This document shows positions 2,618 to 22,264 of a DNA stretch of 32,000 nt, piece by piece. The translations under genes were made by a program, and so were the position numbers. The first letter of the stretch is position 1. Each line of letters opens with the position of its first letter. Source of the DNA: Candidatus Saccharimonadota bacterium (lineage in GTDB: Bacteria > Pseudomonadota > Alphaproteobacteria > CAJXXZ01 > 1604HC); contig NZ_CP043314.1 in the NCBI RefSeq assembly GCF_008189525.1, positions 360,001 to 392,000 on the forward strand. Reading direction: 5' to 3'. A model generated the notes under the pieces. It did no database searches. It was given only the letters and a program-made list of their open reading frames with translations, and had not been told where the DNA came from.

Positions 2618-3364
2618 ATGGTTTTAAAACTAAGAGAAGGGGTTATATTGAACAAATCTGGCAAAGAAAAAATTTCAAGAATTTTTGATAAAGATCAACA
2701 AACAAAATTAGATATTTATATGCAAATGATACTGGATTGGCAACCTATGCTTCATTTGGTAAGCACAAACGCTCTTCAGAATCTAAGAAAACATATTTTG
2801 GATTCTGCTTATTTGTTAAAATTCATGGACAGTGAACTAACTTCTGCAAAATCTGAAAATGAAAGTTTTTTTGGGATAAAGAATATCACAGAACAAGATC
2901 AATTAAATGAACCAAAAAGTCCAGAACTATGTAAATATATATTGGATTTTGGATCTGGAAATGGGTTTCCTGGAGTTATTTTAGCTATATTAGGATTGGA
3001 TGTAATTTTAGTAGAAATTCATAAAAAGAAGTGCATTTTCTTAGATGAGGTAAAAATCAAATTAGAACTAAATAACTTGCAAGTATATAATTCTGATATC
3101 AGAAACTTTAATTTACAATCTTCTAATTCATGCAAATATAAAGAAATAAAATATATAGTTACCAAGGGATTTGGCAAGGTAGATAAATGCATAGAATATA
3201 CAGAGCATATTTGGTCAGAAGATACAGTAGGTTTGTTCATAAAATCTAATGATGTAGAGTCTGAATTGGAACAAGCTTTGACAAAATGGAATTTTAATCA
3301 CAAGATTCTAAGTAGGTATATGCCTGGATTTGTATTAGAGTTAAAAAATTTAAGAAAAATCTGA
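2618..3364 (+). CDS. rsmG: 16S rRNA (guanine527-N7)-methyltransferase RsmG/GidB
   Basis: The SAM-binding motif ILDFGSGNGFPGVILAI is present. The position immediately upstream of parA-parB matches the classic gid-par cluster. There is a hydrophilic insertion before the SAM motif. Confidence 0.75.
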   Translation: MVLKLREGVILNKSGKEKISRIFDKDQQTKLDIYMQMILDWQPMLHLVSTNALQNLRKHILDSAYLLKFMDSELTSAKSENESFFGIKNITEQDQLNEPKSPELCKYILDFGSGNGFPGVILAILGLDVILVEIHKKKCIFLDEVKIKLELNNLQVYNSDIRNFNLQSSNSCKYKEIKYIVTKGFGKVDKCIEYTEHIWSEDTVGLFIKSNDVESELEQALTKWNFNHKILSRYMPGFVLELKNLRKI

Positions 3365-3586
3365 TAAGCATTAAAGTATAGATATAGTAGTAATAATGAT
3401 TTTTAGGTTAAACTGTTTGCAAAACAAGCTAAATATTAAACTTAAATAAATAAAAATTAAATATACTAGATTTTAAAACATGATTATAAGCAAACAGGGG
3501 CGAAGTTGAACAAAATCATCACAATCATAAGTAAGGATTATATAAAGAATCCTAGAAATACAAATTTTATAAGGATAATGTTAAAA

Positions 3587-3776
3587 AACAGGAGCGCAAG
3601 TTGAATAGAAACAAAACCATCGCGGTGGTGAATCAGGAAGATGCCCCAAGGAGAATAACAGGAGCGCAAGTTGAATAGAAACAAAACCATCGCGGTGGTG
3701 AATCAGGAAGATGCCCCAAGGAGAATAACAGGAGCGCAAGTTGAATAGAAACAAAACCATCGCGGTGGTGAATCAG
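3587..3776 (+). repeat. 70-bp tandem repeat (2 perfect copies plus a 50-bp third copy that runs into parA); a degenerate older copy lies at about 3492-3586
   Basis: The string ggagcgcaag recurs at 3591, 3661 and 3731. Copies 3587-3656 and 3657-3726 read identically. Each unit contains AGGAG, a 6-nt spacer, TTG and the first 12 parA codons. Confidence 0.95.
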
Positions 3777-4499
3777 AAGGGAGGAGTAGGAAAAACCACT
3801 ACTGCTGTAAATTTATCTACTGCACTTGCTCAAAAAGGGAAAAAAGTTCTGTTGATAGATTTAGATCCTCAGGGAAACGCAACTACTGGAGTTGGTTTAG
3901 AGAAAAATTCCGTAAGCAATTCATATGATCTATTTTTTGAAAAAGTACAAGAAAGTAAAACCTTTGTGGAAAATTTACATTGCATTCCTAGTAGTAAAGA
4001 TTTAGCAGGGATTGCAATAGAGCTGGCTTCTGATCCAGTAAAAAATTACAAACTAAAGCAATCTATAAATTATCCTGAATATGACTACATAATCATGGAT
4101 TCTCCACCTACACTAGGATTGATAAGCTTGAATATTTTGAACGCATGTAATGGAATTATTATACCAATGCAATGTGAGTTTTACTCACTTGAAGGAATAG
4201 CTCAGCTAATGGAAACAATAAGCTCTGTAAGAGAAAATTGGAACAAAGATATTAAAATAGATGGAATACTAATGACAATGTTCGACAGAAGAAATATGCT
4301 TTCTAAAGATGTTTTGAATGAAGTAACAATGTTTTTCAAAGATTTAGTTTTTGAAACAAAAATACCTAGAAATGTTAAACTAGCAGAAGCTCCTTCTTTT
4401 GGGAAGCCAGGAGTAATTTACAGTCCATTATCTCCAGGGGCAAAAGCTTATGATGATTTAGCAGAAGAATTTTTATCTAAAGAAAAATTAAATCAATAA
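3741..4499 (+). CDS. parA: Chromosome partitioning ATPase ParA/Soj
   Basis: The deviant Walker A is present in [19 protein letters not shown], followed by [18 protein letters not shown] and a C-terminal EAPSFGKP. The start is TTG, preceded by AGGAG. Confidence 0.9.
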
Positions 4500-4662
4500 G
4501 AATCTAAATCAGAAAATAAATACTAAACTAACCTTAAGAAATATAAAAATAAGTTATATAATGTGGGTAAAGTTAAAACTAAATGATTTTAAATAGCATA
4601 ATAAACAAAATATTTGTTTTACTATCAAATTATTTATTACAAATTATAAAATGGAGATTTAA

Positions 4663-5676
4663 TTGAATTCAAAAAATCATAGACCTAGAATAGGAAAAGG
4701 GCTTCAAGCTTTGTTAGAAACAGAAACATCCCAATTCAAAGAAATAAGCATTAAAAAACTTCACCCTAGTAAATTTCAAACAAGAACAGAGTTTAAAGAA
4801 AGCGAAATAGAAGAATTATCAGCAACAATTAAAACAAACGGTATCTTACAGCCTATAATAGTAAAAAAAACAGAACTATCTTCCTCTAATACTGAACAAA
4901 AATTCGAAATAATAGCTGGAGAAAGAAGGTTTAGAGCTGCTAAATTAGCAGGTTTAGAAAACATTCCATGTAGAGTTGTAAATTGGTCAGAAGAAGAAAT
5001 AATCGAAGCAAACTTACTGGAAAATATACAAAGATCTCAGTTAAATGGAATAGAAGAAGCCAGAGCTTATAAAAAATTACTAGATAAATACAGCATTACA
5101 CAGGAAGAGTTATCAAAGAAGGTTGGTAAAAGCAGAAGCCATATTGCTAATCTAGTCAGATTACTTAAATTACCTGAAAATATACAAAATGAAATATTAA
5201 AAGGAAACCTAACTGTAGGTCATGGGAAAGCTCTATTACAAAAAGAAAACACACAATTAATGGAAGAAGAGTTAGGTAGAATCCTAAAAGAAAATCTTTC
5301 TGTTAGAGATATAGAAAATAGATCAAACAATGTTCCAGAGAATATGAATGATTATAATCCAAAAAATAATAACAAAAATTCAAGGAAGTCAGATAACGCA
5401 CAGAATGGAAAAACTGGAAAGATAAATCTAGGCGGTCATAATCAAGAAAAAACTGAAGAACAATGTATAAATGTAAATGAACCAAAATCACAAGCAAGCA
5501 AAACCAAAAATGAGGATCTGATTCTAATAGAAAGTCAAATTTCTCAATTATTAGATTACACGACTGAAATAGAAATGTTATCTAAATCTTCCGGAAATAT
5601 AAAAATAAATTTCAAAAACAGTATAGATCTTGATGATATTTTATCTAAACTATCTTCGATACAGAAAAAAAAATAA
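4663..5676 (+). CDS. parB: Chromosome partitioning protein ParB/Spo0J, with a long low-complexity insertion before the C-terminal dimerisation segment
   Basis: An N-terminal GKGLQALL is followed by the ParB box IIAGERRFRAAKLAG and the HTH TQEELSKKVGKSRSHIANLVRLLKL. The start is TTG with GGAG 7 nt upstream. Confidence 0.9.
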   Translation: MNSKNHRPRIGKGLQALLETETSQFKEISIKKLHPSKFQTRTEFKESEIEELSATIKTNGILQPIIVKKTELSSSNTEQKFEIIAGERRFRAAKLAGLENIPCRVVNWSEEEIIEANLLENIQRSQLNGIEEARAYKKLLDKYSITQEELSKKVGKSRSHIANLVRLLKLPENIQNEILKGNLTVGHGKALLQKENTQLMEEELGRILKENLSVRDIENRSNNVPENMNDYNPKNNNKNSRKSDNAQNGKTGKINLGGHNQEKTEEQCINVNEPKSQASKTKNEDLILIESQISQLLDYTTEIEMLSKSSGNIKINFKNSIDLDDILSKLSSIQKKK

Positions 5677-5836: not shown

Positions 5837-6556
5837 ATGATACAATTCCGAATGGATAGTAATTCAATTTATTCTAACATTTCACGTTTTAAAATCAGTT
5901 TATCAAAACTTTCAACTAAACTTTCGAAATATTTTAGACCAAAGGGGTTTAGTTTTTTTGAAATAGGTATAGTGATTTTCTTGATTAGCATATTACTTGG
6001 ATATGTAATAAAAAAAGGGTCTACAATCATGGAAAAGACAAAAATGTTCGAAGTATCAAATAAAATAAGAGATACAAAAATGTCCATCGAATCTTTCAAG
6101 ATTTCTCATGGATTCTTACCAGGAGATTGTCCTCATAAAAATATGTACAAACCAGGAAATGGAAACAATATAATAGAAGGAAAAGGATTAGAGAAAGACT
6201 CAGAGTCTTATGTTTTTTGGGATCACCTTTACATGCATGAAAATACTAAAATCCCTAAATCTCATTTTATAAGTGTAATGGGAGGGGGTATAATTACCGT
6301 TGAGCAAAACCCTGATGGATTAGAAGATGCATGGTTAATTATAGGAAAACCTGTAACATCAACTAACAGAGCTAATGGCCCTTTGTTCAGTTATACGAAC
6401 ATTATAGAGTTAATCAAAAATCTTAGTGATTCTATTGATGATGGAGAATTAATGATAAAAACGGCAAATGAAGGTTCTGCAAAGAAACCTGAGGAAATTT
6501 CTAATGAAAACAAACAATCATCTAAGAAAATTTTTACAGCATATATCAGAATATGA
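5837..6556 (+). CDS. Prepilin-type (class III signal) pilin/pseudopilin-like protein
   Basis: The sequence RPKG|FSFFEIGIVIFLISILLGYVI has G at -1, F at +1, E at +5 and a hydrophobic alpha-1 helix. Further on, a GFLPGD segment resembles the start of a pseudopilin globular domain. The leader length is uncertain (alternative start ATG 5852). Confidence 0.6.
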   Translation: MIQFRMDSNSIYSNISRFKISLSKLSTKLSKYFRPKGFSFFEIGIVIFLISILLGYVIKKGSTIMEKTKMFEVSNKIRDTKMSIESFKISHGFLPGDCPHKNMYKPGNGNNIIEGKGLEKDSESYVFWDHLYMHENTKIPKSHFISVMGGGIITVEQNPDGLEDAWLIIGKPVTSTNRANGPLFSYTNIIELIKNLSDSIDDGELMIKTANEGSAKKPEEISNENKQSSKKIFTAYIRI

Positions 6557-6658: not shown

Positions 6659-7909
6659 ATGAAAAATAAATATATATCCAGAAATACAAACATAATGTAC
6701 ATAAATAATGTGAAGAAATTTCTAAGACCAAAAGGATTTTCTATGCTTGAAATGGCAATAGTTTTAGTAATATTTGGTTCATTAAGTAGCATTATGTTTA
6801 GCTCGATGCAAAAGTATGTAAAGTGGCAAAGAAGTGAAGTAACTAAATCGAATATGGAAAAAATCTTAAAATCACTTGGAACTTTTGTTTCGTCACGTGG
6901 CAGATTACCATATCCATCCACACCTTCAAATAAGTTTCCTGACCCTGATAATCCAGTTACTGTAGCTCCAGGGTTTGAATACCCTTGGCCTAAAAATGAT
7001 AAAGAATGGGGAAATATATACTTATATTCAGGCATAGTTCCATTCAAAACATTACAAATACCTGAGCACATGGCCAAAGATGGGAATGGTAGATATTTTA
7101 CATACGTTATGGACACTACATTAGGCGGACGAACATATGTAGAATCCGTTTCACCAAATGATGACAGAATAAAATATGAATATGATTCTGATGATAAAGA
7201 TATAAAAATATCTAGCTTTTGCTTTGTAAGACACTATGGAGATCCTACAGAAATAACCAAAGGTGAAATAACCAAAGGAGTTGGAGATTCAGGGTATTTC
7301 AAGCATATTGGACTTAATTTCAGAGCATCTCTAGTAGATTTAGTGCATTGGAGAGAAAAAATTAGTTTGATTGAAGACAAAACTGTATACGCATATCAGC
7401 TTATGTATCCAGAATATATACCTCAAAACAATCTTGCTACTAAATATTTTATAAGTGAAATGTACCAACATGACAATGATCTCTATAGACAACACCATAG
7501 ACCATATGTTCTAAACAAAGCTTTCTCTGCTAAAATGAGCTCTTCACACAAAGGGCTTGTTGTAAGGGATACAATAGCTGTAGTACTCATAAGTCACGGA
7601 GATTCAGGTGGATGGATAACACCAAATGGAACAAGGCAACCTTTAAAGGGAGATGTGTCAAGAGGGAAAAGATGTAATTCAAAGCATAATGGTTCTTTTT
7701 TTGAAACTGATATAGAAACCAAAAAAGATAAGAGTAAGATTTTCGATGATACTGTTTTATTTGTATCCAGATTCAATTTTGCAGCACTCTACGGAGGATT
7801 CTTATGCGAATCATTAAGTTCAAGCCAAAGACACGTACCTTATATACCTGCACCTCATATAGCTGATAAAATAGCTAAAAAACAAAATTTGACAGAACAT
7901 AATCAATAA
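6659..7909 (+). CDS. Large (416 aa) prepilin-type pilin-like protein
   Basis: The sequence RPKG|FSMLEMAIVLVIFGSLSSIMF has the same G/F..E signature as the upstream gene, followed by a GRLPYP segment. The remaining roughly 350 aa have no motif I recognise. Confidence 0.55.
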   Translation: MKNKYISRNTNIMYINNVKKFLRPKGFSMLEMAIVLVIFGSLSSIMFSSMQKYVKWQRSEVTKSNMEKILKSLGTFVSSRGRLPYPSTPSNKFPDPDNPVTVAPGFEYPWPKNDKEWGNIYLYSGIVPFKTLQIPEHMAKDGNGRYFTYVMDTTLGGRTYVESVSPNDDRIKYEYDSDDKDIKISSFCFVRHYGDPTEITKGEITKGVGDSGYFKHIGLNFRASLVDLVHWREKISLIEDKTVYAYQLMYPEYIPQNNLATKYFISEMYQHDNDLYRQHHRPYVLNKAFSAKMSSSHKGLVVRDTIAVVLISHGDSGGWITPNGTRQPLKGDVSRGKRCNSKHNGSFFETDIETKKDKSKIFDDTVLFVSRFNFAALYGGFLCESLSSSQRHVPYIPAPHIADKIAKKQNLTEHNQ

Positions 7910-8086: not shown

Positions 8087-8815
8087 ATGTATATAGATGA
8101 ATGCAGAAAATGGATGTCATTTGTTATTGAGCTAGCATTAAAAACAAAGAATCATGAAGAAGTACCAGTAGCATGTGTTATTTTGAATAAAACACTTACA
8201 AATCAAAGCTCATCATCATTAAATAAATTACAGCTAAAATCTACAGAGCCTGACAGAAAAACATTTCACAATAACAAAAACCAAAAGTATAGCGAATGTA
8301 TATCTCAAATTAATTCCAATGAATATAAAAATACTAATGAGTATAATAACGAGTATAAATATGAATTAGTATCTAAATCTTCAAATCAAGTACAGCTAAA
8401 ACAAAATCCATTAAAGCATGCAGAATTAATAGCACTTGAGCTAGCTTTGAAAAAATTAAATACAAAGTATCTTACAAACTGTATTTTAATAACAAACTTA
8501 GAGCCTTGCGATATGTGCATGAAGGCTATAGAGCTATGTAAAATAAAAAGAGTTATCTTTGGAGCGTATAGAAATAATTTAAACCAAAATAAATTAGATA
8601 ACGATCTACAAGAAAATCATAAAGAAAGACATATTAGTAACATGCAAAATAATTCACAAAAACATAATACTAATTATCATTCTTGCAAGAGTCATAACAA
8701 TTACCATGATTATCACTATAAAAATCACTCTAGTCATCATATTGGTGGAGTAATGGAAACTGAATGTAAAAAAATACTTCAGAATTTCTTTAAAAAAATC
8801 AGAGAAAGAAATTAA
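8087..8815 (+). CDS. tadA: tRNA-specific adenosine deaminase TadA with two large low-complexity insertions
   Basis: The deaminase zinc motifs are present: EVPVACVIL, KHAELIALE (HAE) and LEPCDMCMKAI (PCxxC). They are followed by VIFGAY and a C-terminal GGVMETECKKILQNFFKKIR. Confidence 0.75.
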   Translation: MYIDECRKWMSFVIELALKTKNHEEVPVACVILNKTLTNQSSSSLNKLQLKSTEPDRKTFHNNKNQKYSECISQINSNEYKNTNEYNNEYKYELVSKSSNQVQLKQNPLKHAELIALELALKKLNTKYLTNCILITNLEPCDMCMKAIELCKIKRVIFGAYRNNLNQNKLDNDLQENHKERHISNMQNNSQKHNTNYHSCKSHNNYHDYHYKNHSSHHIGGVMETECKKILQNFFKKIRERN

Positions 8816-9090: not shown

Positions 9091-11109
9091 ATGACAGAAA
9101 GTATACAAAAAACTTTATCAAGAATAAGACCTCCTAGAGTTAAGATAACCTATGATGTAGAGACAGGTGGAGCTATAGTAAAGAAAGAGCTCCCTTTCAT
9201 AATGGGAGTAATATCTGATCTTTACGGACACCAGGAAGAAAAAATAGATCTTAAAGATAGAAGATTTATTTTTATAGATAGGGATAATTTTAACGATGTT
9301 ATGTCTTCTATCAAGCCTATGCTAAAAATCAGAGTCAAAGACACACTAGCAAAGAAGGCACCAGATTCTAAGAAAGCTAAGAAATCTGATGGAAAAGAAG
9401 AGAAAGATTCAAAGAAAGCAAAATCTAATGATGCTGCATCCGAAGATGCAATGATTCCTTTAGAAATAAAGTTCGAAAGCATTGATGATTTTCATCCAGT
9501 ATCAATAGTAAACAAAATTCCTGAATTGAATTCTATGATTAAAGATCACGTATCTTTGGTAGATTTACTTTCAAAAGTAGATGGAAACGAAGATTTAGAT
9601 AAAATTCTATGCGATGTAGTAAAATCTGAAGATAAAGCTAAACTAATAGCAGAATCAGCAGATATTTCTAAAGCAACTCCAGAAATAGAAAAAATCATAA
9701 AAGAAGGAAAAATGATCCTACAAGAAGGAGAAACTGTAGACCCTGACAAGCTTCTAAAAGCTAAAGAAATTGTCGCAGCTTTTGTAAGATCCTTGGATGA
9801 AGCTAAAGAGTTGAGTAACTCCTATCCATACATAATGAATAGAATTTCAAACATAGACCAACAAATCTCCTTGCAACTTGACGAAATAATTCACAATCCA
9901 GAGTTTCAGAAATTAGAAGCTTCTTGGAGAGGGCTACATTATTTAGTCATGAATTCTGAAACTGGTGAAAGATTGAAAATCAGAGTCTTATCTATTACAA
10001 GAGATGAATTACAATCTGATCTAGAAAATGCTATAGAGTTCGATCAAAGTAAATTATTCAAAAAAGTTTATGAAGAAGAATATGGAACATTGGGTGGAAT
10101 GCCTTACTCTTGTCTTCTAGGTGATTTCTACGTAGGAAGAAGTCCTGTAGATGTTTCTTTAATAGATCATATAAGCACTGTTGCTGCTGCTGCACACACA
10201 CCATTCCTTGCTGCTGCTGATCCATCTATGTTTGATTTGTCTGCATTCACAGAACTTCACTACCCAAGAGATTTGAAAAAAATCTTCGAAAGTTCAGAAA
10301 TGATCAAGTGGAACAGCTTTAGAGACAAAGAAGACTCTAGATACGTAAACTTGTTCTTACCAAGAGTTCTTGTAAGACTTCCTTACGGTGATGATACCAT
10401 TCCTGTAAAAGAATTTTCTTACAATGAAAAAGTCGATGGACTAGATAACTCTAAGTTCTGTTGGGGTAACCCAGCTTTTGCGATGGCTTCAAGAATTACA
10501 GATGCATTTGCAAAATTCGGTTGGACTGCTGCTATCAGAGGTGTAGAAGGTGGTGGATTAGTAGAAAATCTACCTGCATACACATTTAAGACACAATATG
10601 GTGACATAGCTCTTAAATGCCCTACAGAAACAATCATAACTGACAGAAGAGAAAAAGAATTAAGTGATTTAGGTTTCATAACAATTTGTCATAACAAAGG
10701 AACAGATAAAGCTGTATTCTTTGGATCACAAAGTACACAAAAACCAAAAGAGTACAACCTTCCAGAGGCAACTTCAAATGCGTTGATCTCTTCAAGATTG
10801 CCTTACATGCTTAATGTATCTAGATTTGCTCATTATATAAAAATGATCATGAGAGAAAAAATAGGTTCATTCGCCTCTGCAGAAGATATAGAAACATACT
10901 TGAACACATGGATTGCACAATATGTATTCTTATCAGACACAGGAAGCCAAGGAATAAAATCCAGGTATCCATTAAGAGAAGCAAATATAAAGATCAAAAC
11001 AAATGAATCTGATCCAGGATCTTATAGCGCTATTATATACATGAAACCTCACTTCCAGTTGGAAGAACTAACCGTTTCATTAAGACTAGTAGCTAAGATT
11101 CCTGCTTAA
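9091..11109 (+). CDS. tssBC: Type VI secretion sheath, fused TssB(VipA)-TssC(VipB) single polypeptide
   Basis: The N-terminal part carries the TssB signature: [40 protein letters not shown] and [13 protein letters not shown]. The remainder carries TssC signatures: [84 protein letters not shown] and SLRLV. The frame is continuous. ATG 9091 is preceded by GAGAGGA, and the ORF is open from TTG 9076. Confidence 0.85.
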
Positions 11110-11129
11110 AAAGAAAGGATAAATAGAAA

Positions 11130-11759
11130 ATGATAGCACAAAACAATAATATGGGCTCAAATCTAGGAAAGTTAGAAAATAACAGAATACAGTATGGAGA
11201 TGGATCGAGCGTTGATGGTATAAACCAACTCGAAAGACAAGATTCTGGTTCTGATCTTCTAATCAGAATGGGAGAAGATACAAAAAAAGAAGTTAGTAAT
11301 ATTGAAAAATACACATGCTTCCATCCAATGAAGAGTTACCACGAATCTTTCACAGGATCAGTTAACAAAGATATGTCTAACCCAAACAAAACATTGAGCG
11401 GAAAAGTAATATCAAGTTACATAGAAGTTGTAGTTCCAGTTGGTGTGTTTGCCATGTCTATGGAAGAAACTGGTTTAACAAATACAGGTATTAAATTCAT
11501 AGAAGTAGTTAGAACACAAATCGTAAAGAAAGAAAGAGTTATTTCTGAATCCAGAATTTTCGTACAATCTTTCGTACTTGGAAGTGCAGGTCAGCTAGGT
11601 GATCACGTTTGGTTACAACTTGGATTTAATGAAGTTCATAAACATATAAACCAATATGACTCAGCAGGAAATCCTACTGGAAGCTTTGGATATGCTTATT
11701 CAAATGAAAAAGGAACCTTGTTGGCAGACGGTAAACTAGACCCTTACAGTCCTTCATAA
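11130..11759 (+). CDS. hcp: Hcp/TssD-like T6SS tube protein, divergent, with a roughly 40-aa N-terminal extension
   Basis: The gene starts 20 nt downstream of tssBC. DLLIRMGEDTKKE aligns with the Hcp N-terminus (DMFIKIGDVKGES). IFVQSFVLGSAGQLGDHVWLQLGFNEVHKHINQYDSAGN aligns with VLVSSVSTGGSGGEDRLTENVTLNFAQVQVDYQPQKADG of P. aeruginosa Hcp1. Confidence 0.6.
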   Translation: MIAQNNNMGSNLGKLENNRIQYGDGSSVDGINQLERQDSGSDLLIRMGEDTKKEVSNIEKYTCFHPMKSYHESFTGSVNKDMSNPNKTLSGKVISSYIEVVVPVGVFAMSMEETGLTNTGIKFIEVVRTQIVKKERVISESRIFVQSFVLGSAGQLGDHVWLQLGFNEVHKHINQYDSAGNPTGSFGYAYSNEKGTLLADGKLDPYSPS

Positions 11760-12077
11760 TACAAGAGCTTAAAACAATCTAAAGAAAAAATGGTATCAGG
11801 ATGATATATGATTTCGCAGAAATGATATCAGGATGGTGTCATTTAATTTTTTAGGTTAGTTCTAATTAAGAAATATTTTCAAAATAGCAAAACACTATTT
11901 TCTATTCTATAGGGAATTTTATTTCTAATAAACTAATGTATATTGATTTTAATAGTTAAAAAAAACATAACAATGCTCAAGCATATTAATTTACTAATAT
12001 TCAGATCTATTACATTACATATTTACTCAATTTAAACTTTTATAAGATAGACTTTTTAAACATTTCTTAAATATGAC

Positions 12078-14039
12078 TCAACTTATATTCTTCAAATAAT
12101 TATAAGAATTTAACACCCATGTGTTTTCTTTCAAATAATTGCTTATAGAATCAATAACAGAAGGGCCGATTCCTTTTATATTTATATTTGCTAATTTTTC
12201 TTTATCTGTAAAAGTTTCTATGAAATTTTCTAAGGTAATTAAATTCTTTGCAAGCAAAGTACTTTGCCCATATCCAACATTAGGAATACATAAAGCAAAA
12301 ATCCATCTATTAAGCTCTATTCTTGATTGAGAGTTTATACTATTCAATATATTTATAGCTACTTTGCTGCCCAATATATTTTTTACCTGACTATTATTTT
12401 GAAGTATAAGTTCTCTTAATTTTTTAATTACATCTTCTTGATTGTTCACTAAACCAATTTCAAATAATTTTCTAATATTTTTCTCACCCAGATTAGATAT
12501 ATTTAGTGCTTTTTTAGAAACAAAATGCTCTATTTGTAATATTTTCTGTTCACTACATTGAGGATTAATGCATTTCAACATAACACTTTCTCTTACTAAT
12601 TCACTATTGCAAGATGGGCAAATTACAGGAAGTATAAACTTTTCTTTTCCAGTATTTTTCTTAGACATTACGTGTGGAATTACATCTCCAGCTCTAGCTA
12701 TAATCACCTCATCACCAATTCTGTAATCTTTGTTAATAACTTCTTGAACATTATGCAAAGAAACTTTCTTAACTTCTACTCCATCTATAAAAATCGGATC
12801 TAAAATGGCTACAGGGCTTATTGCTCCACTTTTTCCAATTTGCATAACTATATCTACAATAGTTGTGGAAGAATTTCTCGGAAAAAACTTACAAGCAAAG
12901 CAAAATCTAGGTGCTGTGCTATGAAAACCTAATTCATCCCAGCTCTTCAAGCTATTCACTTTCAGAACAACTCCATCTACAGGGTAGGGTATATCGTTTC
13001 TAGACAGCTCTGTTTTCTGAAAAGCTTCTTTTGCCTCACATAAATCATCACAAATGACATATTTCATTGTATTAAATCCCAATTTGGATATTAAATCTAT
13101 CTGATTAGAGTACTTAGATCTTAAATTCTGTACAAACCCATGGGGAATAAATTTCAATTTGTAATTTGCTATAAAATCCATTTCTTTATTTCTTAAAATA
13201 CCAGCAGTAGCATTTCTAGGATTCTTAAATTCCTTTTCTATAGAGTTATTAACTTTATTAAAAGACTCAAAATCCATAAAAATTTCACCTCTAATCTCAA
13301 ATTCATCAGGCATAGTAATTTCTTCTGTATCCATTATATTTACACTTACTGCACCTGAGCTTTCATCTTTTGTATCTTTGTTTATATCTATATTTTTATC
13401 TTCTTCTGCACTTTCTACTATTTCTACTAAAGCTTCTATTTTTACTGGAATTTCTTGAGGTATGTTTTCTATATATTTAGCTTGTTTAGTAATATCCATT
13501 CCATAAGTTCCATCTCCTCTTGTTACACATAAACTCAGTTTCCCTTTTGTATAACTTAATGACGCAGATATTCCATCTATCTTATGTTCCAAAACCATTT
13601 CTGGCTCTAATTTTATAGAATTAAGTATTTTTTTATAAAACTTCTCCATAGAATCAGTTCCGTACCCATGGTCCAGAGAAAGCATAGGAAATTTATGCTT
13701 AACTTCTTTGTCTTCTATATGTCCGATTTTATTTAAAGGGCTGTTTTTTTGCTTCCCTATTTTTTCTTCTATTTCTTGCAATCTATATTTTAATAAATCA
13801 TACGATGTATCAGCAATTAAAGGCTTACCATAAGCATATTTTTTGTCATAAAACTTTACTTTCTTAGAAACTTCTTTCCACTCTTGTTTCAACTTACCTA
13901 AATCTCCGCCTAAACCTTCTTCGGTTATTTTGCCTATAGGTTTATCTTCAACAAATTTACTCACTTTAGATGTATTTTCTAAGTTTTTATCTTTTTTTAA
14001 AACACTACTTTCATCAATTTCATCAAATAAACTTCCCAT
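12078..14039 (-). CDS. ligA: NAD-dependent DNA ligase LigA (N-terminal extension, internal insertion, no BRCT domain)
   Basis: The adenylation motif EHKIDGISASL (KxDG) is present, followed by TRGDGTYG, VDGVVLK and the Zn finger CPSCNSELVRESVMLKCINPQC, then HhH repeats (IPNVGYG, IKGIGPS). The protein ends right after the HhH region. Confidence 0.9.
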   Translation of the reverse strand: MGSLFDEIDESSVLKKDKNLENTSKVSKFVEDKPIGKITEEGLGGDLGKLKQEWKEVSKKVKFYDKKYAYGKPLIADTSYDLLKYRLQEIEEKIGKQKNSPLNKIGHIEDKEVKHKFPMLSLDHGYGTDSMEKFYKKILNSIKLEPEMVLEHKIDGISASLSYTKGKLSLCVTRGDGTYGMDITKQAKYIENIPQEIPVKIEALVEIVESAEEDKNIDINKDTKDESSGAVSVNIMDTEEITMPDEFEIRGEIFMDFESFNKVNNSIEKEFKNPRNATAGILRNKEMDFIANYKLKFIPHGFVQNLRSKYSNQIDLISKLGFNTMKYVICDDLCEAKEAFQKTELSRNDIPYPVDGVVLKVNSLKSWDELGFHSTAPRFCFACKFFPRNSSTTIVDIVMQIGKSGAISPVAILDPIFIDGVEVKKVSLHNVQEVINKDYRIGDEVIIARAGDVIPHVMSKKNTGKEKFILPVICPSCNSELVRESVMLKCINPQCSEQKILQIEHFVSKKALNISNLGEKNIRKLFEIGLVNNQEDVIKKLRELILQNNSQVKNILGSKVAINILNSINSQSRIELNRWIFALCIPNVGYGQSTLLAKNLITLENFIETFTDKEKLANINIKGIGPSVIDSISNYLKENTWVLNSYNYLKNIS

Positions 14040-14136
14040 AATTAGCTCTTTTCTGCTTTTAATATTTAATATCTTTTAATTATTTTTTTATAAATTTTAT
14101 AATTTCATTTTTACTTATTAATCATATTTAGATTAG

Positions 14137-14940
14137 TTAGTTAAGGTTTTTAGCCTCTACGTACCACTTACTTTTGGGGTATTTCATTTCAAAGTATTTT
14201 AAGATTCTCTCTTTATCTCTTTTTGAACCTATATTCTGAAAAATTTCAGCACACCTAAACAAAGATTCTTGTACATAATCACTTTTGCTATATTCTTTTA
14301 TTATTTTTCCATAATACTTTAAGGAAACTATTGGATTTCCTTTCTTGGAGTAAAAAATACCTAATTGAAAATTTTGGTAAGCAAGAATATTTATGCATTT
14401 ACTTCTTATTTCTGAATGATTTGATTTAGAAAGGGGAATTAATTCTAGAATTTCGCTTATTTCTGAATTATCTCTACCTACATCTCTTATTTTTTTATAT
14501 AAACACTTAATTATTATAGAGTTCACATCCATTTCACCAGAAAAAATAGGAAATATAGATTTCAAAACTCTTGCAGCTTCTAAGCTCTTTTCATATTCCT
14601 TAGCATTATAAAAAGATTTAGCTGCTTTAAGAATAGCATACTTAGCTTTGCTAGATGTTGGATAATTTTCTTCTATTTCAAGGTACTTTTCTGCAGCCTG
14701 TGAATATTTTTTCCTTTTCAAAAGATCCTCTGCATTAAGCCAAATTTTTTGCAAATCCGACACTTTATCTTTCTGGTCAGAGCTCTTTTGATTTACTTTC
14801 TTATTTTCTTTTACAGCAGCAGATTTTTCAAGATTCAGATCATATAAACCGCTAGAGCTTAAAGTATATAAGAATAAAGCCACTAAAATAGCCTTAATTA
14901 TTTTATTAATTTTTCTTCTAGATTTTTTAAAGAAATACAC
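14137..14940 (-). CDS. bamD: BamD/YfiO(ComL)-like TPR outer-membrane assembly factor
   Basis: An N-terminal hydrophobic signal-like segment is followed by repeated TPR-like units with the typical BamD pattern: YPTSSKAKYA, LAYQNFQLGIFYSKKGN, EYSKSDYVQESLF and YPKSKWY. The start is GTG. Confidence 0.6.
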   Translation of the reverse strand: MYFFKKSRRKINKIIKAILVALFLYTLSSSGLYDLNLEKSAAVKENKKVNQKSSDQKDKVSDLQKIWLNAEDLLKRKKYSQAAEKYLEIEENYPTSSKAKYAILKAAKSFYNAKEYEKSLEAARVLKSIFPIFSGEMDVNSIIIKCLYKKIRDVGRDNSEISEILELIPLSKSNHSEIRSKCINILAYQNFQLGIFYSKKGNPIVSLKYYGKIIKEYSKSDYVQESLFRCAEIFQNIGSKRDKERILKYFEMKYPKSKWYVEAKNLN

Positions 14941-15099
14941 ATCAAAAATATAACATTTTGTAAAGATTATTAGAATATGAATAATTTGAATAAGCGCATT
15001 TGAATCATATTATTTATTTTAATAGTTATATTTATTAACTAATATACAGCTAGATAAAAACAGCTAGACAAAATAGAATACATAGAATCAACGTAAAAA

Positions 15100-16284
15100 C
15101 TACGCCAAGTTTACTTTGCAGTATCCATTTTTACTATTCAACCAACTTAACTCTCCTAAAATACAATCTTCTCCTAATAATGCATCAGGTCTTGATTCTT
15201 TCTTCAAATTTAACTTTATTGAAAAATTCAAATCAAATGGAACATAAGATTTAATCAACTTTATAATTTGACTCCTAAGCCTTTTTCCATGCATAAGTTT
15301 TTTATACAAATCCAAGCTGTGTATAGTAATTAGTATATCTATTCCATATGTATTATCCAAAAACCTCTTTCCTAAGAAAGTAGTTCCAAAACTTCTTCCT
15401 GGAGCATCACTATACCCAAGACAATACCCTTTATTTTCCACATGCCTTCTAGTAACTTTGTCAAATGAAAACACATCCTCATCGTTTATATATTCCCATT
15501 TCCCCTTAAACTGAAAAACTGCCACATCACACTTATAATTTAAAAATGATAAAATTATCCTTTTTAATTGAAATTTATTATGCTTTTGTTTCCAAAATGC
15601 TGCAGACACATATCTAGATATATTATTTATATAAGAATTTACATAAGGTTTTGTAGAGCCTATAGATTCTAGAACTTTATTAATAACATGATCTCTCTTG
15701 TTTTGAGGATTACATATTGATACATTTCCCCTCTGTGCTATTTTGTAAGTATTTTCTATTATCTTATTATTAAAAATATCTAAGAAATCTTTGAAAACAT
15801 GATCTTTTTCTTTTCCATCATTAATAAATTTATGTATATAGAATAATGGCAAAGCACCCTGTATTCCGAGCATACTTACATTATTAACTATCATTTCTAT
15901 TCTTTTTCTTTTCTTATCGTACGATATAGATTTTATATCACTAGAGTTTACGCTCATTTCAACAGAACCTTTAAAAACTATTTCTTTTATATCTTTCGGG
16001 TTCTTTTTTTGATAACTTTCCAAGAGAAAGATTGCTTGGTGTACGGAAAAATTCCAAGGAGATTTAATCAAATTATACAAAACAAATTGACTGTCAAAAT
16101 AATGATAAGTTTTTAATTCATTTTTTGAATCCATGCCTGAATCTATGCCTGAATCTAACTTATCTAAGTAAAACTTACTTTCAGAATTTAATTTATTTTG
16201 CTCCATCTCTAACTCACTTTCTAATTTACTTTCTAATAATTTCAGTTTTGTAACATTTAAATATTTAATATCTTCTGAGCTCAC
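15100..16284 (-). CDS. tssG: Type VI secretion baseplate protein TssG (ImpH/VasB family)
   Basis: WNFSVHQAIFLLE matches the TssG N-terminal FxFFQAxRLLE-type motif, and the C-terminal ALLGEDCILGELSWL matches the LG..LG..W tail. The GTG start follows directly after the tssF TAA stop. The N-terminal extension contains a 12-bp tandem duplication (16133-16156, encoding DSGIDSGMDS). Confidence 0.75.
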   Translation of the reverse strand: MSSEDIKYLNVTKLKLLESKLESELEMEQNKLNSESKFYLDKLDSGIDSGMDSKNELKTYHYFDSQFVLYNLIKSPWNFSVHQAIFLLESYQKKNPKDIKEIVFKGSVEMSVNSSDIKSISYDKKRKRIEMIVNNVSMLGIQGALPLFYIHKFINDGKEKDHVFKDFLDIFNNKIIENTYKIAQRGNVSICNPQNKRDHVINKVLESIGSTKPYVNSYINNISRYVSAAFWKQKHNKFQLKRIILSFLNYKCDVAVFQFKGKWEYINDEDVFSFDKVTRRHVENKGYCLGYSDAPGRSFGTTFLGKRFLDNTYGIDILITIHSLDLYKKLMHGKRLRSQIIKLIKSYVPFDLNFSIKLNLKKESRPDALLGEDCILGELSWLNSKNGYCKVNLA

Positions 16285-18081
16285 TTAATTCTGAACTTCC
16301 CATTTTTTCCACGGTACATCATCATTAGATGACCCGAAAACTCTCATTTCTAATAGCGTATTGAAGCCTACATTGTTGCTTATGACACAAGACAAAACTT
16401 TTCCTAGCATAAAATGCTCTGCAACTTCATCCTTTATTTTTAAGTCAATAACAATTTTAGGAACTGACCCTGTCCAAGGAGAATTAGGCATCCTAGCTAT
16501 TGTTTTCTTGTGCTTTATCCCTAAAATTACCTCATTATATTTCTGATTGAAATTAAAATTATATATTTCTAGCATTTTCCTTAAAGGTTTTATATCTGAG
16601 TTATTAATAGAAAGATCCACATGGTTCAAAGATAAATTAGATATTATTTCCCATTGAGATTGCCCTCCGTACTGAGGATCTACTTGTTCTGTCGGTTTTA
16701 AAATATTAACACAAGAAAGGTTATCTATTTTATTAAACTGAAAACTTGTCTTGTAATTTATACTTTGAGCTTTATCTCTATTTGTACATAATAAATCAGC
16801 ATAAACAGTTTCTTCACTATATTCCTCTACATCCAAATCTTCATCAATAAAAGAAATCATCATTTTTGATCCTTTATCTTCTTTTTCTCTTCTTGAATAC
16901 CAAAAAGATCTTTCAGAGCCATTTTCTATGTCTGAAAATGAAAAGTAGGGATAATATACCTTTCTATTATTCTTAAAAGAACTCTTGTAACTAAATACTT
17001 CTTTTATAGTGTGTATTTCTGAATTTGAATCAAATCTATCAGACATGATTTTATATGAATCTTTTTCGTAATCTAATCTCAATGGCTCAGACTTCTGTTC
17101 AAACAAATTTACTGCTGGGCAACAATTATTCATAAGAATATTATCACTCATTGGAAGAAGTGAAGGCTTTGTCCTTTTGCTAAGAGGGATAAGAAAAGCT
17201 ATATCTCCTTTTATTTGTTCTAAATTAACATTTAAATTATTAATCTCGAAATTTAAAAATAAAAACTTATGCGGGAATATATTATATTCCATCAAAAGCC
17301 TATGAGAATCAGAAGTATATATAGGTCTATCTATGAGAGATTCATCCTCTCCAAATCCTTTTGGAGTTATTACACCTATTTTACTCTTTTGTAATAATTT
17401 CCCAGATTTATCAGATAAATAAATCGGAGTAGGTTCAGTTGGGTGATACCCTAAAATATGCTCGTATAAACTCTTAGCAGAAAAAAGATCACTATTTATA
17501 TAAAAAACTACATTAGAATTATTTTTGAAACTTTTCATATTTTCTGTTTCAAGTGAAAGACACCAATAATTCTGAGATTCTAATAATTCTGTATCTTCGG
17601 TCTTCATATAACTTATTTTCTTAGGATTAAAATCATTAACTGTTATTTCTTGAGAAGTAATAAAGTCACATAAAATATCTTCCTTATTATTAGCGCTGAT
17701 TTTTGTATGCTTAGGGATTTTAATATTCTTCTGATTAGATATATTTTTCTTACTTTCAAAATGAACTATTGTGCATGATGGAAACGGAGCCATAAATTGT
17801 GGATACAAAGAATCTAATAAAAAAGAGCTCAGGAAAGATAACTGGTCATCTATTTGCCATTGCAGCCTAGCATCAAAAAAAGCAAAAGACTCTAATATTC
17901 TTTGTACATGCGGGTCATCGACCTTATTTTCAGCAAAATTCAACTCCCTTGCTACAGAAGGGTATTTTTCTGCAAACTCATTTCCTTTTTTCAAAAGATA
18001 ATCCATAGATTTTCTAAAATGTGGAAACAGATTATTTAGATCTGGTGTAGATTTCATAGGCAAATTTAAAAATAAAATCAT
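16285..18081 (-). CDS. tssF: Type VI secretion baseplate protein TssF (ImpG/VasA family)
   Basis: The sequence YLLKKGNEFAEKYPSVARELNF..DDPHVQRILESFAFFDARLQWQIDDQL..LLDSLYPQFMAPFPSCTIVHF is the canonical TssF N-terminal signature. The length of about 590 aa fits the family. An alternative start exists at ATG 18057. Confidence 0.85.
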   Translation of the reverse strand: MILFLNLPMKSTPDLNNLFPHFRKSMDYLLKKGNEFAEKYPSVARELNFAENKVDDPHVQRILESFAFFDARLQWQIDDQLSFLSSFLLDSLYPQFMAPFPSCTIVHFESKKNISNQKNIKIPKHTKISANNKEDILCDFITSQEITVNDFNPKKISYMKTEDTELLESQNYWCLSLETENMKSFKNNSNVVFYINSDLFSAKSLYEHILGYHPTEPTPIYLSDKSGKLLQKSKIGVITPKGFGEDESLIDRPIYTSDSHRLLMEYNIFPHKFLFLNFEINNLNVNLEQIKGDIAFLIPLSKRTKPSLLPMSDNILMNNCCPAVNLFEQKSEPLRLDYEKDSYKIMSDRFDSNSEIHTIKEVFSYKSSFKNNRKVYYPYFSFSDIENGSERSFWYSRREKEDKGSKMMISFIDEDLDVEEYSEETVYADLLCTNRDKAQSINYKTSFQFNKIDNLSCVNILKPTEQVDPQYGGQSQWEIISNLSLNHVDLSINNSDIKPLRKMLEIYNFNFNQKYNEVILGIKHKKTIARMPNSPWTGSVPKIVIDLKIKDEVAEHFMLGKVLSCVISNNVGFNTLLEMRVFGSSNDDVPWKKWEVQN

Positions 18082-18217
18082 TAAATTTATGTTAAAAACG
18101 TATTAAACTGTCAGTTTTCATACAAAATTTGATTAAATTTGATCTTTAAACTGTATTTAACTATGAAAGAGAGTGCTCAGTGTAGGAATTAAAATATATT
18201 TTGTATAGGATGTTGTG

Positions 18218-19246
18218 ATGAAGTATGCATTCGTTTTTCCTGGCCAAGGATCTCAGAAACAAAATATGGCAAGTGATTTTTATTCATGTTCTAAATTGCT
18301 AGATACATCTAAAAACATATACCCAAATATAGAAAACATATTCAAATTACCAGATCCAGAGTTAAGTCAGACAGAAAATTCTCAACCAGCAATATTTGTA
18401 GCTTGCAGTATGATATGGGAAGAAATAAATAAAATGTATTCATTCTCATCTCTAAGTAATAATGCAGGTAATAATAATGAGCATAGTATACAAAATGGAC
18501 ATATAAACCAAGCTGATAAATTACAAACATCTGATCAAACCACTGTTAACAAAAATGATACAAAAATGATTCCAGCTCCATCATTTTTTGCAGGGCATTC
18601 TTTAGGAGAGTATTCAGCTTGCTTTGCTTCTAATGCAATAAACTTTGAATCTGGGTTAGAGCTGATAAAACTAAGGTCGAGATTAATGTCTAAATCGAAG
18701 GGTACTATGTTTGCTTGTATAGGAAAATTTGATGATGTACAAAATCTTTGCCAATTTGTGTCTGAAAAGACTAATAAAATATGCCAAATTGCAAATGATA
18801 ATAATGACACTCAAGTAGTTATAAGTTGTGAAAATGATTGCATAGATTTAATTAATAAAAGTTATAAAAATTTCAATGTAAAAAGATGTATACAACTTAA
18901 AGTAAGCGGAGGATTTCATTCTCCTTTAGTTGAAAGTGTAAAATCTGAATTATCTAAAGGAATCAACGAGGTCATGTTTAATGATGTAGAGATTCCAGTA
19001 ATATCTAATAAAACTGCACTGCCAGAAAAAATAGGACAAAAAATAAAAGATAATTTAATGGATCATGTTGTTTCTGGTGTAAAGTGGAGAGAAACAATTA
19101 TGTTTATGAAAGAAAATGGAGTAGAAAAAATTGTTGAAGTAGGAGGAAATGTATTATCTAAAATATCTGCAAAACTTGGAGTAGACTCTTTTTCGATATC
19201 TAATAAAAATGAGCTTTTGGATTTAGAATCCTTTTTGAATAAATAA
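18218..19246 (+). CDS. fabD: Malonyl-CoA:ACP transacylase FabD (with a roughly 45-aa insertion before the active-site Ser)
   Basis: The motifs YAFVFPGQGSQ, QPAIF, the active-site GHSLGEYSA and VSGGFHSPL are present. AGGA lies 8 nt upstream of ATG 18218. Confidence 0.85.
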   Translation: MKYAFVFPGQGSQKQNMASDFYSCSKLLDTSKNIYPNIENIFKLPDPELSQTENSQPAIFVACSMIWEEINKMYSFSSLSNNAGNNNEHSIQNGHINQADKLQTSDQTTVNKNDTKMIPAPSFFAGHSLGEYSACFASNAINFESGLELIKLRSRLMSKSKGTMFACIGKFDDVQNLCQFVSEKTNKICQIANDNNDTQVVISCENDCIDLINKSYKNFNVKRCIQLKVSGGFHSPLVESVKSELSKGINEVMFNDVEIPVISNKTALPEKIGQKIKDNLMDHVVSGVKWRETIMFMKENGVEKIVEVGGNVLSKISAKLGVDSFSISNKNELLDLESFLNK

Positions 19247-19380
19247 ACTTTCTAACTACTATAAACTGCCATATATATAAATGCCTTTAATTTTGCTATA
19301 CTGATTTGGTTGTTATTATTTTTACATTTTTAATTTTAAGTGTAATTATTTTAATTATTTATATATTGAAAGGTGGATTT

Positions 19381-20112
19381 GTGTTTGATCTTACAGGCAA
19401 AAGAGCTCTTATAACAGGAGCTGCAGGTGGAATAGGATCTGAAGTTGCAAAAACATTAAAAAATCATGGGGCTGACGTTTTTTTGACCGGCACAAAAACA
19501 GAAGAACTTAAGGAAATTTCCAAACCTATAGGTGCGAGTGGATATTTTGCAGCAGACTTAACATCCTATGATGATTTAAAGAAAATGTTCTCAGAGGCTG
19601 TAAAATGCATGGGTGGAGTAGATATTTTGGTTCACTCTGCAGGTTTTGCACAAGACAGACTATACCCAGCTGTAACAAATGAATCATGGCAAAAACAAAT
19701 GGATGTAAATCTAAATTCAGTTTTTCAGTTAACTCAATTAGCTCTCAGTAAAATGAGAAGAAATGGATGGGGCAGGGTAATTAGCATGTCTTCTGTAGTG
19801 GGTTGTACTGGAAATATAGGACAGGTAGCATATTCCACTTCAAAAGCTGCTCTTCTAGGAATGACTAAAACTCTAGCCAGAGAAGTAGCGAAAAGCAACA
19901 TTACTGTAAATGCTATTTGCCCTGGATTTATAGACACTCAAATGACAAAAGAACTTTTGGAATCAAATGGTAAAATATTAGAAAATATTCCACTACAAAG
20001 AGCTGGAACAGTTAAAGAGGTTGCAGCTGGAGTGATTTATTTAGCAAGTGAAGAGTCTGCATATGTTACTGGAACGAGTTTACATATAAATGGTGGGATG
20101 ATGATGTGCTAA
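19381..20112 (+). CDS. fabG: 3-oxoacyl-ACP reductase FabG
   Basis: GTG 19381 gives (M)FDLTGKRALITGAAGGIGS, the canonical FabG N-terminus, with AGGTGG just upstream. The catalytic motifs SSVVG, YSTSKAA and NAICPGFIDT are present, and the C-terminus is LHINGGMMM. The ORF-track start at 19306 adds only an implausible hydrophobic leader. Confidence 0.85.
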   Translation: MFDLTGKRALITGAAGGIGSEVAKTLKNHGADVFLTGTKTEELKEISKPIGASGYFAADLTSYDDLKKMFSEAVKCMGGVDILVHSAGFAQDRLYPAVTNESWQKQMDVNLNSVFQLTQLALSKMRRNGWGRVISMSSVVGCTGNIGQVAYSTSKAALLGMTKTLAREVAKSNITVNAICPGFIDTQMTKELLESNGKILENIPLQRAGTVKEVAAGVIYLASEESAYVTGTSLHINGGMMMC

Positions 20113-20882
20113 CAAAATATAGACAAACAAGACTATGGTTAGTGCAATCTATTTTCCAACATCTAATAAATAAAAATCCTTACAAATTAGGGAAAAATAA
20201 TTCAGAGCAAGTTAAATCTGAGAAAATACGTAATGAAGAAATAAAGCCTGAATCAGATTTCATTAACAACGAAGATGGAACTCTAGTTTTCGAATCTGAA
20301 CAAACAACAGAAACCACTTTAAATGAAGAAAACGAAGATAATGAAATTGTAAAGGAAGATGAAGATGATACTTTACAAGATTTACAAGAGAAATCCGATG
20401 AATTTAATGATGTAATTTTAAATGATATAAACTTAAATACCAATGAACTCGAAACTGAATCTACAGAATTAATCGAAGATCTTGAAACCAAAGAATTTGA
20501 AAACATAAATGAACACATAGATATAAATTATAAGATGCGTGAGTTTGAAGAAATTATTTTCGATAATTTAGGGGATAAAGTAGAATTCAAAAAACTTTTT
20601 TCAGGTGTTCTACATAATGAGCAAGAAGTGACAGAAAAAGTTTCTAAATACTTAACTAGTAGCTGCAAATGGAAGAACATGCAATTAGTTTTAAAAAGTA
20701 TATTTTTGTCTGCTGGGTATGAAATTATTTTTGCAAATTTGGACAATGGTGAAGATCTAGAAAAGACAAAGCAGCATATAATAAAAAATTACATATCTAT
20801 AGCTAGAGTACTAGGAGAAGAAAAAGGGGTAGATGTAATCTTCTCTGTTTTACATAAAATCAAACACAAAATAAACGTATAA
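20106..20882 (+). CDS. nusB: Transcription antitermination factor NusB-like, with a roughly 115-aa acidic insertion
   Basis: The N-terminal helix RQTRLWLVQSIFQ is followed later by FKKLFSGVLHNEQEVTEKV, LVLKSIFLSAGYEII and IIKNYISIARVLGEEKGVDVIFSVLHKI. This matches the NusB helix pattern (R..A.Q.L, GV....ID, ILR.A.YEL, INE.VE.AK....FVN.VL). The GTG start overlaps the fabG stop. Confidence 0.55.
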   Translation: MLTKYRQTRLWLVQSIFQHLINKNPYKLGKNNSEQVKSEKIRNEEIKPESDFINNEDGTLVFESEQTTETTLNEENEDNEIVKEDEDDTLQDLQEKSDEFNDVILNDINLNTNELETESTELIEDLETKEFENINEHIDINYKMREFEEIIFDNLGDKVEFKKLFSGVLHNEQEVTEKVSKYLTSSCKWKNMQLVLKSIFLSAGYEIIFANLDNGEDLEKTKQHIIKNYISIARVLGEEKGVDVIFSVLHKIKHKINV

Positions 20883-21748: not shown

Positions 21749-22264
21749 TTAAGCTTTGTATGGCATTAAAGCTAGAAATCTTCTTTCTTTTATAGCCTTA
21801 GAAAGTCTTCTCATTTCTTTAGCACTAAAGCCTAATATCTTTGGAGCTAAAATACGACCATGAGGGGTTGTCATTCTAGAGGTATCTCTTAGATAATCTA
21901 TTTTATTCTCAGCAAATCTATTTCTAGGGTCTCTGATTGGATCAAATAAACTTTGAACTTCTGTCAAAGGTCTTTCTTTCTTGTCCAGTAATCTGATCAT
22001 GTATCTGATCAAATCCTTGTTTAATTTTAATGTGTTTACAAGTTTTTTTGATTGTTCAGAAGGAAGATTAAAGTCCATAAGAATATAATGTCCTCTTATG
22101 TTTCTTTGTATTTCATATTTTAGCTTGTTCAGTCCAAAATTTTTCCTTGATACTTCTTTTCCGCCTAAAGAGTCAATTTCTTTTGAAATTTGATCAACTA
22201 CTTTTTCAGCTTCTTCTTCTGATATGTTTTGTTTCAGTACACAGTTTAACCTGTAATTGCGCAA
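21749..22264 (-). CDS. rpsF-rpsR: Ribosomal protein S6 fused in frame to ribosomal protein S18
   Basis: Residues 1-93 (MRNYRLNCVL..EEAEKV..GGKEVSRKNFGLNKLKYEIQRNIRGHYILMDF..LIRYMI) follow the S6 pattern. Residues about 113-171 (RNRFAENKIDYLRDT..HGRILAPKILGFSAKEMRRLSKAIKERRFLALMPY) follow the S18 core pattern. Confidence 0.75.
   Translation of the reverse strand: MRNYRLNCVLKQNISEEEAEKVVDQISKEIDSLGGKEVSRKNFGLNKLKYEIQRNIRGHYILMDFNLPSEQSKKLVNTLKLNKDLIRYMIRLLDKKERPLTEVQSLFDPIRDPRNRFAENKIDYLRDTSRMTTPHGRILAPKILGFSAKEMRRLSKAIKERRFLALMPYKA

Follow-up and report, generated by a model that had tools for sequence, protein, structure and literature searches.

In this study, we analysed a 32,000-nucleotide stretch of the chromosome of Candidatus (Ca.) Nesciobacter abundans (contig NZ_CP043314.1, positions 360,001 to 392,000; hereafter the window), which carries genes of a type VI secretion system (T6SS) in two separate groups. 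The tail module comprises tssBC, which encodes a single-chain sheath, and hcp, whereas the baseplate-wedge module comprises tssF and tssG. Very probably, these are two conserved T6SS modules of the Holosporales type that lie amid housekeeping genes and were inherited vertically. The dispersed layout and its vertical retention have already been published for the organism and the order. What is new here is the identification of a divergent Hcp in this clade, a modest correction to a known system, to which the finding that the sheath is a natural single-chain fusion is a useful addition. Ca. N. abundans is a Holosporales endosymbiont with a 616-kb chromosome that lives in the diplonemid protist Diplonema japonicum (assembly GCA_960610765.1, record OY490516.1, 616,058 bp; PMC13598402). 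Proteins from both ends of the window match this record at every residue, which assigns the window to this organism. George et al. (10.1101/719211) reported 29.78% G+C for the D. japonicum endosymbiont that they newly described; the window has a G+C content of 29.3% and is densely coding.

The sheath gene is one uninterrupted open reading frame (ORF) at 9076/9091-11109 (+), with no stop codon between its tssB and tssC parts. It matches the Pfam models VipA/TssB (PF05591, 3.4e-41), VipB/TssC (PF05943, 1.7e-127) and VipB_2 (PF18945, 9.2e-42), the large-sheath domains being full length (PF05943 positions 3-301 of 301, PF18945 positions 1-112 of 112), and it scores above the cut-offs of both NCBIfam sheath equivalogs (TIGR03355, 647.5 vs 271.5 bits; TIGR03358, 140 vs 97.25 bits). 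Although the ORF as called mechanically begins at TTG 9076, translation more likely starts at ATG 9091, to judge from the Shine-Dalgarno-like AGAGGA that precedes it and from the orthologues, which start at the equivalent residue. When aligned to the ORF, stand-alone TssB proteins from Pseudomonas and unfused Holosporales cover residues 6-207 and their TssC counterparts residues 186-676, with the junction at about residues 186-207 of the 677-residue ORF, and the PDB sheath chains 9n4v_B and 9n4v_A align to residues 1-88 and 200-671. Therefore, the two proteins were joined head to tail with essentially nothing lost, and the sheath is not made of two polypeptides from adjacent tssB and tssC genes. 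A monomer model from AlphaFold2 (AF2), with a mean predicted local distance difference test (pLDDT) of 66 and low confidence in the handshake regions, added nothing beyond the sequence matches.

Both sheath domains are present in all of the top 120 database relatives of TssBC. The sheath gene is fused in 25 of 85 related loci and split into two genes in the other 60. Fused forms occur in most Holosporales, SAR324, Thiotrichales, Woeseiaceae, Thalassomonas, Algicola and Kangiella, unfused ones in Pseudomonas, Xanthomonas, Stenotrophomonas, Duganella, Reyranella and some Holosporales. Thus, as judged from its spread beyond the Holosporales, the fusion is old and not a by-product of genome reduction. 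A literature search found no paper that discusses a TssB-TssC single-chain fusion. As a separate observation, ribosomal proteins S6 and S18 are also joined in the window, in a 171-residue ORF at 21749-22264 (-) (S6, Pfam 5e-20, residues 3-90; C-terminal part of S18, 1.1e-06, residues 129-167), and their genes are separate and adjacent in two related alphaproteobacterial loci (L010, L022). As with TssB and TssC, the two joined proteins bind each other.

The ORF that starts 20 bp past the tssBC stop codon encodes a protein of 209 residues, which has no match in Pfam (PF05638 included) or NCBIfam, even at E <= 10, and none among the PDB sequences. A word-indexed homologue search returned only the protein itself, or four relatives when a profile was used, and an exhaustive phmmer search of 1.84 billion representative proteins likewise returned four relatives only. 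Its position is informative: where clusters of this sheath lineage are complete, tssBC is immediately followed by a gene for a 202-residue protein recognised as Hcp (Pfam T6SS_HCP, 7e-20) and then by tssE-F-G-(X)-K-L-M, and an ORF of 180-210 residues directly follows the sheath gene in every Holosporales locus. Starting from canonical Hcp, we ran three rounds of an iterative hidden Markov model (HMM) search with accurate alignments against the 8,057 ORFs of all loci. The first round added proteins of Caedibacter-like bacteria, the second reached the ORFs of the metagenome-assembled genome (MAG) CP060235 (6e-10) and of Ca. Cytomitobacter primus (1.8e-6) as well as that of the window (0.0042), and in the third the window ORF scored 5.1e-12. 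All divergent recruits lie directly after tssC or tssBC. Three rounds of a cruder run with fast alignments did not reach the Holosporales ORFs, so the recruitment chain depends on alignment quality, and two independent tests were therefore added. In the first, HHalign comparison of a six-sequence Nesciobacter/Cytomitobacter alignment with 44 canonical Hcp proteins gave a probability of 94.2% (E 1.2e-7, 154 columns). In the second, an AF2 model built from a five-sequence alignment (pLDDT 59, predicted template modelling score 0.60) consisted mainly of beta strands, and the top 50 Foldseek matches in the PDB were nearly all Hcp, Hcp-containing fusion constructs or sheath-tube models, with one phage sheath-tube entry among them (best E 1.2e-8; target-normalised template modelling scores of ~0.55-0.63 among the best matches). 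Although no curated family model recognises the protein, it shows profile homology to Hcp and, at moderate model confidence, the beta-barrel fold. By position, iterative profile, HHalign and predicted fold, the 209-residue protein is thus identified as a divergent Hcp, which is predicted to form a hexameric tube.

In the baseplate-wedge module, the genes for TssF and TssG are adjacent and both proteins match their Pfam models over the full length (TssF, positions 4-602 of 608; TssG, positions 2-303 of 304). TssF also passes NCBIfam TIGR03359 (362.8 bits, cut-off 260.3). The GTG start of tssG abuts the tssF stop codon (junction TAA-GTG). Compared with its relatives, TssG is extended at the N-terminus by ~40-70 residues, and the orthologue alignment starts at residue 72.

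The gene order (pseudopilin-like genes)-tadA-tssBC-hcp-ligA-bamD-tssG-tssF-fabD-fabG recurs, with all ORFs intact, in five genomes: two assemblies of Ca. C. primus, two further genomes of ~620 kb and one 558-kb MAG. Protein identity between the window and C. primus is 63% for TssBC, 59% for FabG, 47% for LigA, 45% for TssF, 43% for FabD, 39% for BamD, 36% for TssG and 28% for Hcp. TssBC thereby has the highest identity among the 12 syntenic proteins compared, and it is still 60% identical to its MAG orthologue. Such conservation points to purifying selection on the sheath and speaks against a decaying relic. The spacing between tssBC and tssFG is 3.3 kb in the Nesciobacter/Cytomitobacter clade and exceeds 10 kb in the Caedibacter-like, Hepatobacter and other loci compared below.

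Within the window, the two modules converge on ligA and bamD, which occupy the 3.3 kb between them, and tssF is divergent from fabD across a gap of 133 bp (Table 1). Profiles for TssE, TssK, TssL, TssM, VgrG and PAAR were made from related clusters and run at maximum sensitivity against six-frame translations of the window and of its two 10-kb flanks (~52 kb in all); nothing scored better than E = 0.4. Therefore, the five T6SS coding regions, which represent five of the 13 core families of subtype i (T6SS-i; TssA to TssM), are the only ones in this ~52 kb, and tssE lies outside the window. The possibility that tssE hides in the N-terminal extension of TssG or in small ORFs was rejected, as the TssE profile finds nothing. 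With [tssB-tssC-hcp] and [tssG-tssF] present and no tssK, tssL, tssM or vgrG within 52 kb, the region has the two-module layout known from Holosporales.

Table 1. Genes of the two T6SS modules and their neighbours, with positions in the window.
Feature	Coordinates	Strand	Evidence and remarks
tadA-like deaminase	8087..8815	+	Pfam dCMP_cyt_deam_1 1.7e-17; upstream neighbour of tssBC, syntenic in all five genomes
tssBC, fused sheath	9091..11109	+	677-aa ORF; Pfam VipA, VipB, VipB_2; NCBIfam TIGR03355, TIGR03358
hcp/tssD, highly divergent inner-tube protein	11130..11759	+	209 aa; iterative HMM, HHalign, predicted fold, position
ligA, NAD-dependent DNA ligase	12078..14039	-	Pfam adenylation, OB, zinc-finger and HHH domains
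bamD, outer-membrane assembly lipoprotein	14137..14940	-	Pfam YfiO 2.1e-10; TIGR03302 86.2 bits (cut-off 81.4)
tssG, baseplate wedge subunit	15100..16284	-	Pfam TssG 8e-38
tssF, baseplate wedge subunit	16285..18081	-	Pfam TssF 5.6e-102
fabD	18215..19246	+	Pfam Acyl_transf_1; flank kept in five genomes
fabG (after fabD)	19306-20112		Pfam adh_short_C2; flank kept in five genomes

An earlier note on this DNA, made from the sequence alone, had described much of this arrangement. It had placed tssBC-hcp on the plus strand and tssF-tssG on the minus strand as the sole T6SS genes of the 32 kb. Pfam and NCBIfam confirm every gene it named, except hcp, for which the profile and fold tests show that its call was right, and the null result of the six profiles bears out that there are no others. 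Its separation of the modules by ligA and a bamD-like gene also stands, since LigA has all its domains and BamD passes the TIGR03302 cut-off, and so does the divergent adjacency of tssF and fabD. That tssE, tssK, tssL, tssM, vgrG and PAAR could not be seen in the window holds with subtype-specific profiles as well, and the interleaving with core genes indeed occurs in a reduced genome, given the 616-kb chromosome. Further, the note had argued for vertical retention and selection, called for a synteny comparison with related genomes, and named pseudogenisation in sister strains as what would refute a dispersed or minimal system. The order and the T6SS ORFs are intact in all five genomes, no pseudogenisation was seen, and the sheath is the best conserved of the compared proteins, all in agreement with that argument. 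Its question of a minimal working gene set was answered differently, as the published inventory lists further components.

This inventory (George et al., Table S3, 10.1101/719211) comprises tssB, C, E, F, G, K, L, M, vgrG, cts2N and PAAR, so the remaining components must be encoded in other parts of the genome, outside the window. With Hcp added, the set amounts to 10 of the 13 core families, TssA, ClpV and TssJ being those not found in the published inventory. A 'modified T6SS' had already been described for N. abundans in the same work. In Holosporales, the T6SS consists of conserved modules at >=4 locations, [tssB-tssC-hcp] and [tssG-tssF] among them; relatives keep [tssK-L-M-A] and [ywqK-vgrG] at other sites, and transcription of T6SS genes was reported in one relative (Midha et al. 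2021, PMC8163844). The tail module varies among the loci compared here. Caedibacter-like genomes have tssBC-hcp-tssE followed by unrelated genes, Hepatobacter (NHP-B) and a Holosporaceae MAG have tssBC-hcp-vgrG-(MORN/YwqK)-PAAR, and several others have tssBC-hcp alone. In the second arrangement, a MORN-repeat protein of the YwqK type lies between vgrG and a DUF4280/PAAR-like gene (L004 7283-7981; L008 15484-16365), a way of joining modules that differs from that in the window. The T6SS is the only secretion machine retained by nearly all Holosporales, even by members with the smallest genomes, and is considered the foremost candidate for the means by which these bacteria manipulate their protist hosts (2025 review).

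Previously, the inner tube (TssD) and TssJ were stated to be missing in all diplonemid endosymbionts and related Holosporaceae (George et al., 10.1101/719211), and the 2025 review repeats the missing inner tube. Accordingly, one could propose a tube-less 'modified' T6SS, in which the 209-residue protein would be an unrelated, fast-evolving and lineage-specific adaptor or effector and the apparatus would be Hcp-free or non-injecting. The protein's failure to match Pfam, NCBIfam or the PDB sequences, its identity of only 28% between genera and the pLDDT of 59 of its AF2 model would fit this proposal. However, we regard it as unlikely: HHalign links the protein to canonical Hcp with 94% probability (E 1.2e-7), the iterative HMM recruits only ORFs directly after tssC or tssBC, the top Foldseek matches are nearly all Hcp or Hcp-containing constructs, and the protein holds the position of the Pfam-positive Hcp in complete clusters. 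Moreover, the corresponding module of Bodocaedibacter was noted to contain an "Hcp-like superfamily" gene (Midha et al. 2021, PMC8163844). Limited sensitivity of annotation is the best explanation for the reported absence of the tube. A divergent Hcp in the expected place removes the need for a tube-less "modified" T6SS, an idea on which functional speculation about this clade was partly built, and narrows the truly missing parts to TssA, ClpV and TssJ.

Somewhat less likely still is that the genes are decaying leftovers of a broken-up T6SS cluster that are heading for loss and build no working machine. The cluster is split, the genome is strongly reduced, TssA, ClpV and TssJ were not found in the published inventory, and Hcp and TssG evolve fast. 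Nevertheless, all five coding regions are full length relative to their profiles, the T6SS genes are intact in five genomes although sheath identity falls to ~60-66%, TssBC is better conserved than LigA, FabD and FabG, and ~6.4 kb of dead genes would rarely be kept in a 616-kb genome. Hardly credible, finally, is a truly minimal T6SS that would need little more than tssBC, hcp, tssF and tssG to work. It would agree with the lack of any further T6SS gene within 52 kb and is contradicted by the inventory, which has tssE, K, L, M, vgrG and PAAR elsewhere in the genome, by the additional [tssK-L-M-A] and [ywqK-vgrG] sites in relatives (Midha et al. 2021, PMC8163844), and by the tssBC-hcp-vgrG-ywqK-PAAR block of Hepatobacter and the Holosporaceae MAG.

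The reading that we prefer, two vertically inherited modules of a dispersed T6SS, has several points to contend with. TssA, ClpV and TssJ are absent from the inventory of George et al. (Table S3, 10.1101/719211), and the presence of tssE, tssK-L-M, vgrG-ywqK and PAAR elsewhere in the genome is taken from published inventories. TssG reaches 121 bits in NCBIfam, under the cut-off of 143. The confidence of the Hcp model is low (pLDDT 59), and an identity between Nesciobacter and Cytomitobacter of 28% for Hcp against 63% for the sheath is odd for a tube that the sheath must fit. Finally, a 2026 volume electron microscopy (volume-EM) study of these symbionts mentions no sheath-like structures.

Potentially, the dispersed genes support an ordinary contractile injection cycle. 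TssF/TssG wedges, TssE and TssK would build a baseplate around VgrG-PAAR on a TssL/M membrane complex. Hcp rings would stack into a tube, around which fused TssBC would polymerise, and its contraction would drive Hcp-VgrG and effectors out of the bacterium. These would be delivered into the cytoplasm or organelles of the host or into bacteria that share it. The sheath would have to be recycled without ClpV and the apparatus anchored without TssJ, for which other T6SS lineages devoid of these parts provide precedents. The N-terminus of TssC that binds ClpV sits at the fusion junction, so the fusion might accompany independence from ClpV. In fused-sheath clusters of free-living bacteria ClpV was not seen within the 10-kb flanks, from which absence at the genome level cannot follow. 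In such clusters, vgrG is followed by genes for DUF2169 and pentapeptide-repeat proteins (L028 18275-21945; L012 1624-5366; L054 13133-15713). Judging by gene spacing, with 20 bp separating tssBC from hcp and no gap separating tssF from tssG, the genes seem to form two small transcription units, tssBC-hcp and tssF-tssG. A scan for promoter and terminator consensus sequences in the AT-rich window gave fewer promoter-like sites than shuffled sequences did. Within the cytoplasm of the host, the symbionts are closely associated with the mitochondrion (George et al., 10.1101/719211; 2026 volume-EM study), so host structures or the co-resident symbiont are plausible targets. It is tempting to speculate, and we put this forward tentatively as a possibility that falls short of being probable, that N. 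abundans has a pared-down but complete firing apparatus of 10 of the 13 families, with a single-chain sheath and a fast-evolving tube, that is under strong selection; such an apparatus might act on the host mitochondrion. If this is true, N. abundans would offer a natural setting in which to ask how small a working T6SS-i can be.

Other features of the region were also recorded. Just upstream of tadA-tssBC lie two prepilin/GspG-like genes with an N-terminal methylation motif (5837-6556 and 6659-7909, +), which are kept at that position in relatives and probably belong to the reduced type II secretion system/type IV pilus reported by George et al. A gidB-parA-parB block at 2618-5676 (+) is typical of origin-proximal regions; no dnaA was found in the window, and the sign changes of the GC skew in the window track gene strand. 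About 2 kb upstream of the window start there is an ORF of 1,386 residues (L087 3888-8048, -) with no match to Pfam, NCBIfam or the TssM and VgrG profiles. This giant orphan in a 616-kb genome is a possible effector candidate. Compared with their orthologues in Cytomitobacter, many N. abundans proteins are lengthened by low-complexity insertions or extensions rich in N, K and E, e.g., TadA (242 vs 143 residues), LigA (653 vs 573), TssG (394 vs 339), FabD (343 vs 307) and Hcp (209 vs 181). Lengthened proteins are encoded at 8087-8815, 12078-14039, 15100-16284, 18215-19246 and 20106-20882, and such lengthening is unusual for a genome under reduction.

Among known systems, the single-locus T6SS-i clusters with a fused sheath, as in Thalassomonas sp. 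(L033) and a 4.38-Mb genome (L005), resemble the window in a fused TssBC of ~49-52% identity, in hcp as the next gene and in the same TssF and TssG families. In contrast to the window, they form one co-directional block, TssBC-Hcp-TssE-F-G-X(TssJ?)-K-L-M, with a sigma-54 activator upstream, and Pfam detects their Hcp; the block of the window is interrupted by housekeeping genes and has tssFG in reverse orientation. The T6SS-ii of Francisella also belongs to an intracellular bacterium, has a tube protein, IglC, whose sequence has diverged too far to reveal it as an Hcp, and is not known to have a dedicated ClpV or a canonical TssJ. However, its genes lie in one pathogenicity island, its sheath is made of two proteins, IglA and IglB, and this sheath is far more distant from TssBC of the window (3j9o_B, 237 bits) than the best T6SS-i sheath (615 bits). 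The T6SS-i of Agrobacterium tumefaciens and Acinetobacter are likewise functional without the outer-membrane lipoprotein TssJ, although in these systems the genes are clustered, ClpV and TssA are retained and Hcp can be recognised. The modular T6SS of Holosporales (10.1101/719211; PMC8163844), which George et al. described in the same organism, shares with the window both modules, their dispersal among core genes and the lack of TssJ. Differences are that the modules of the window lie only 3.3 kb apart and converge around ligA-bamD, that tssE is joined to the tail module in Caedibacter-like loci and not in the window, and that Hcp, reported absent in this clade, is identified here directly after the sheath gene.

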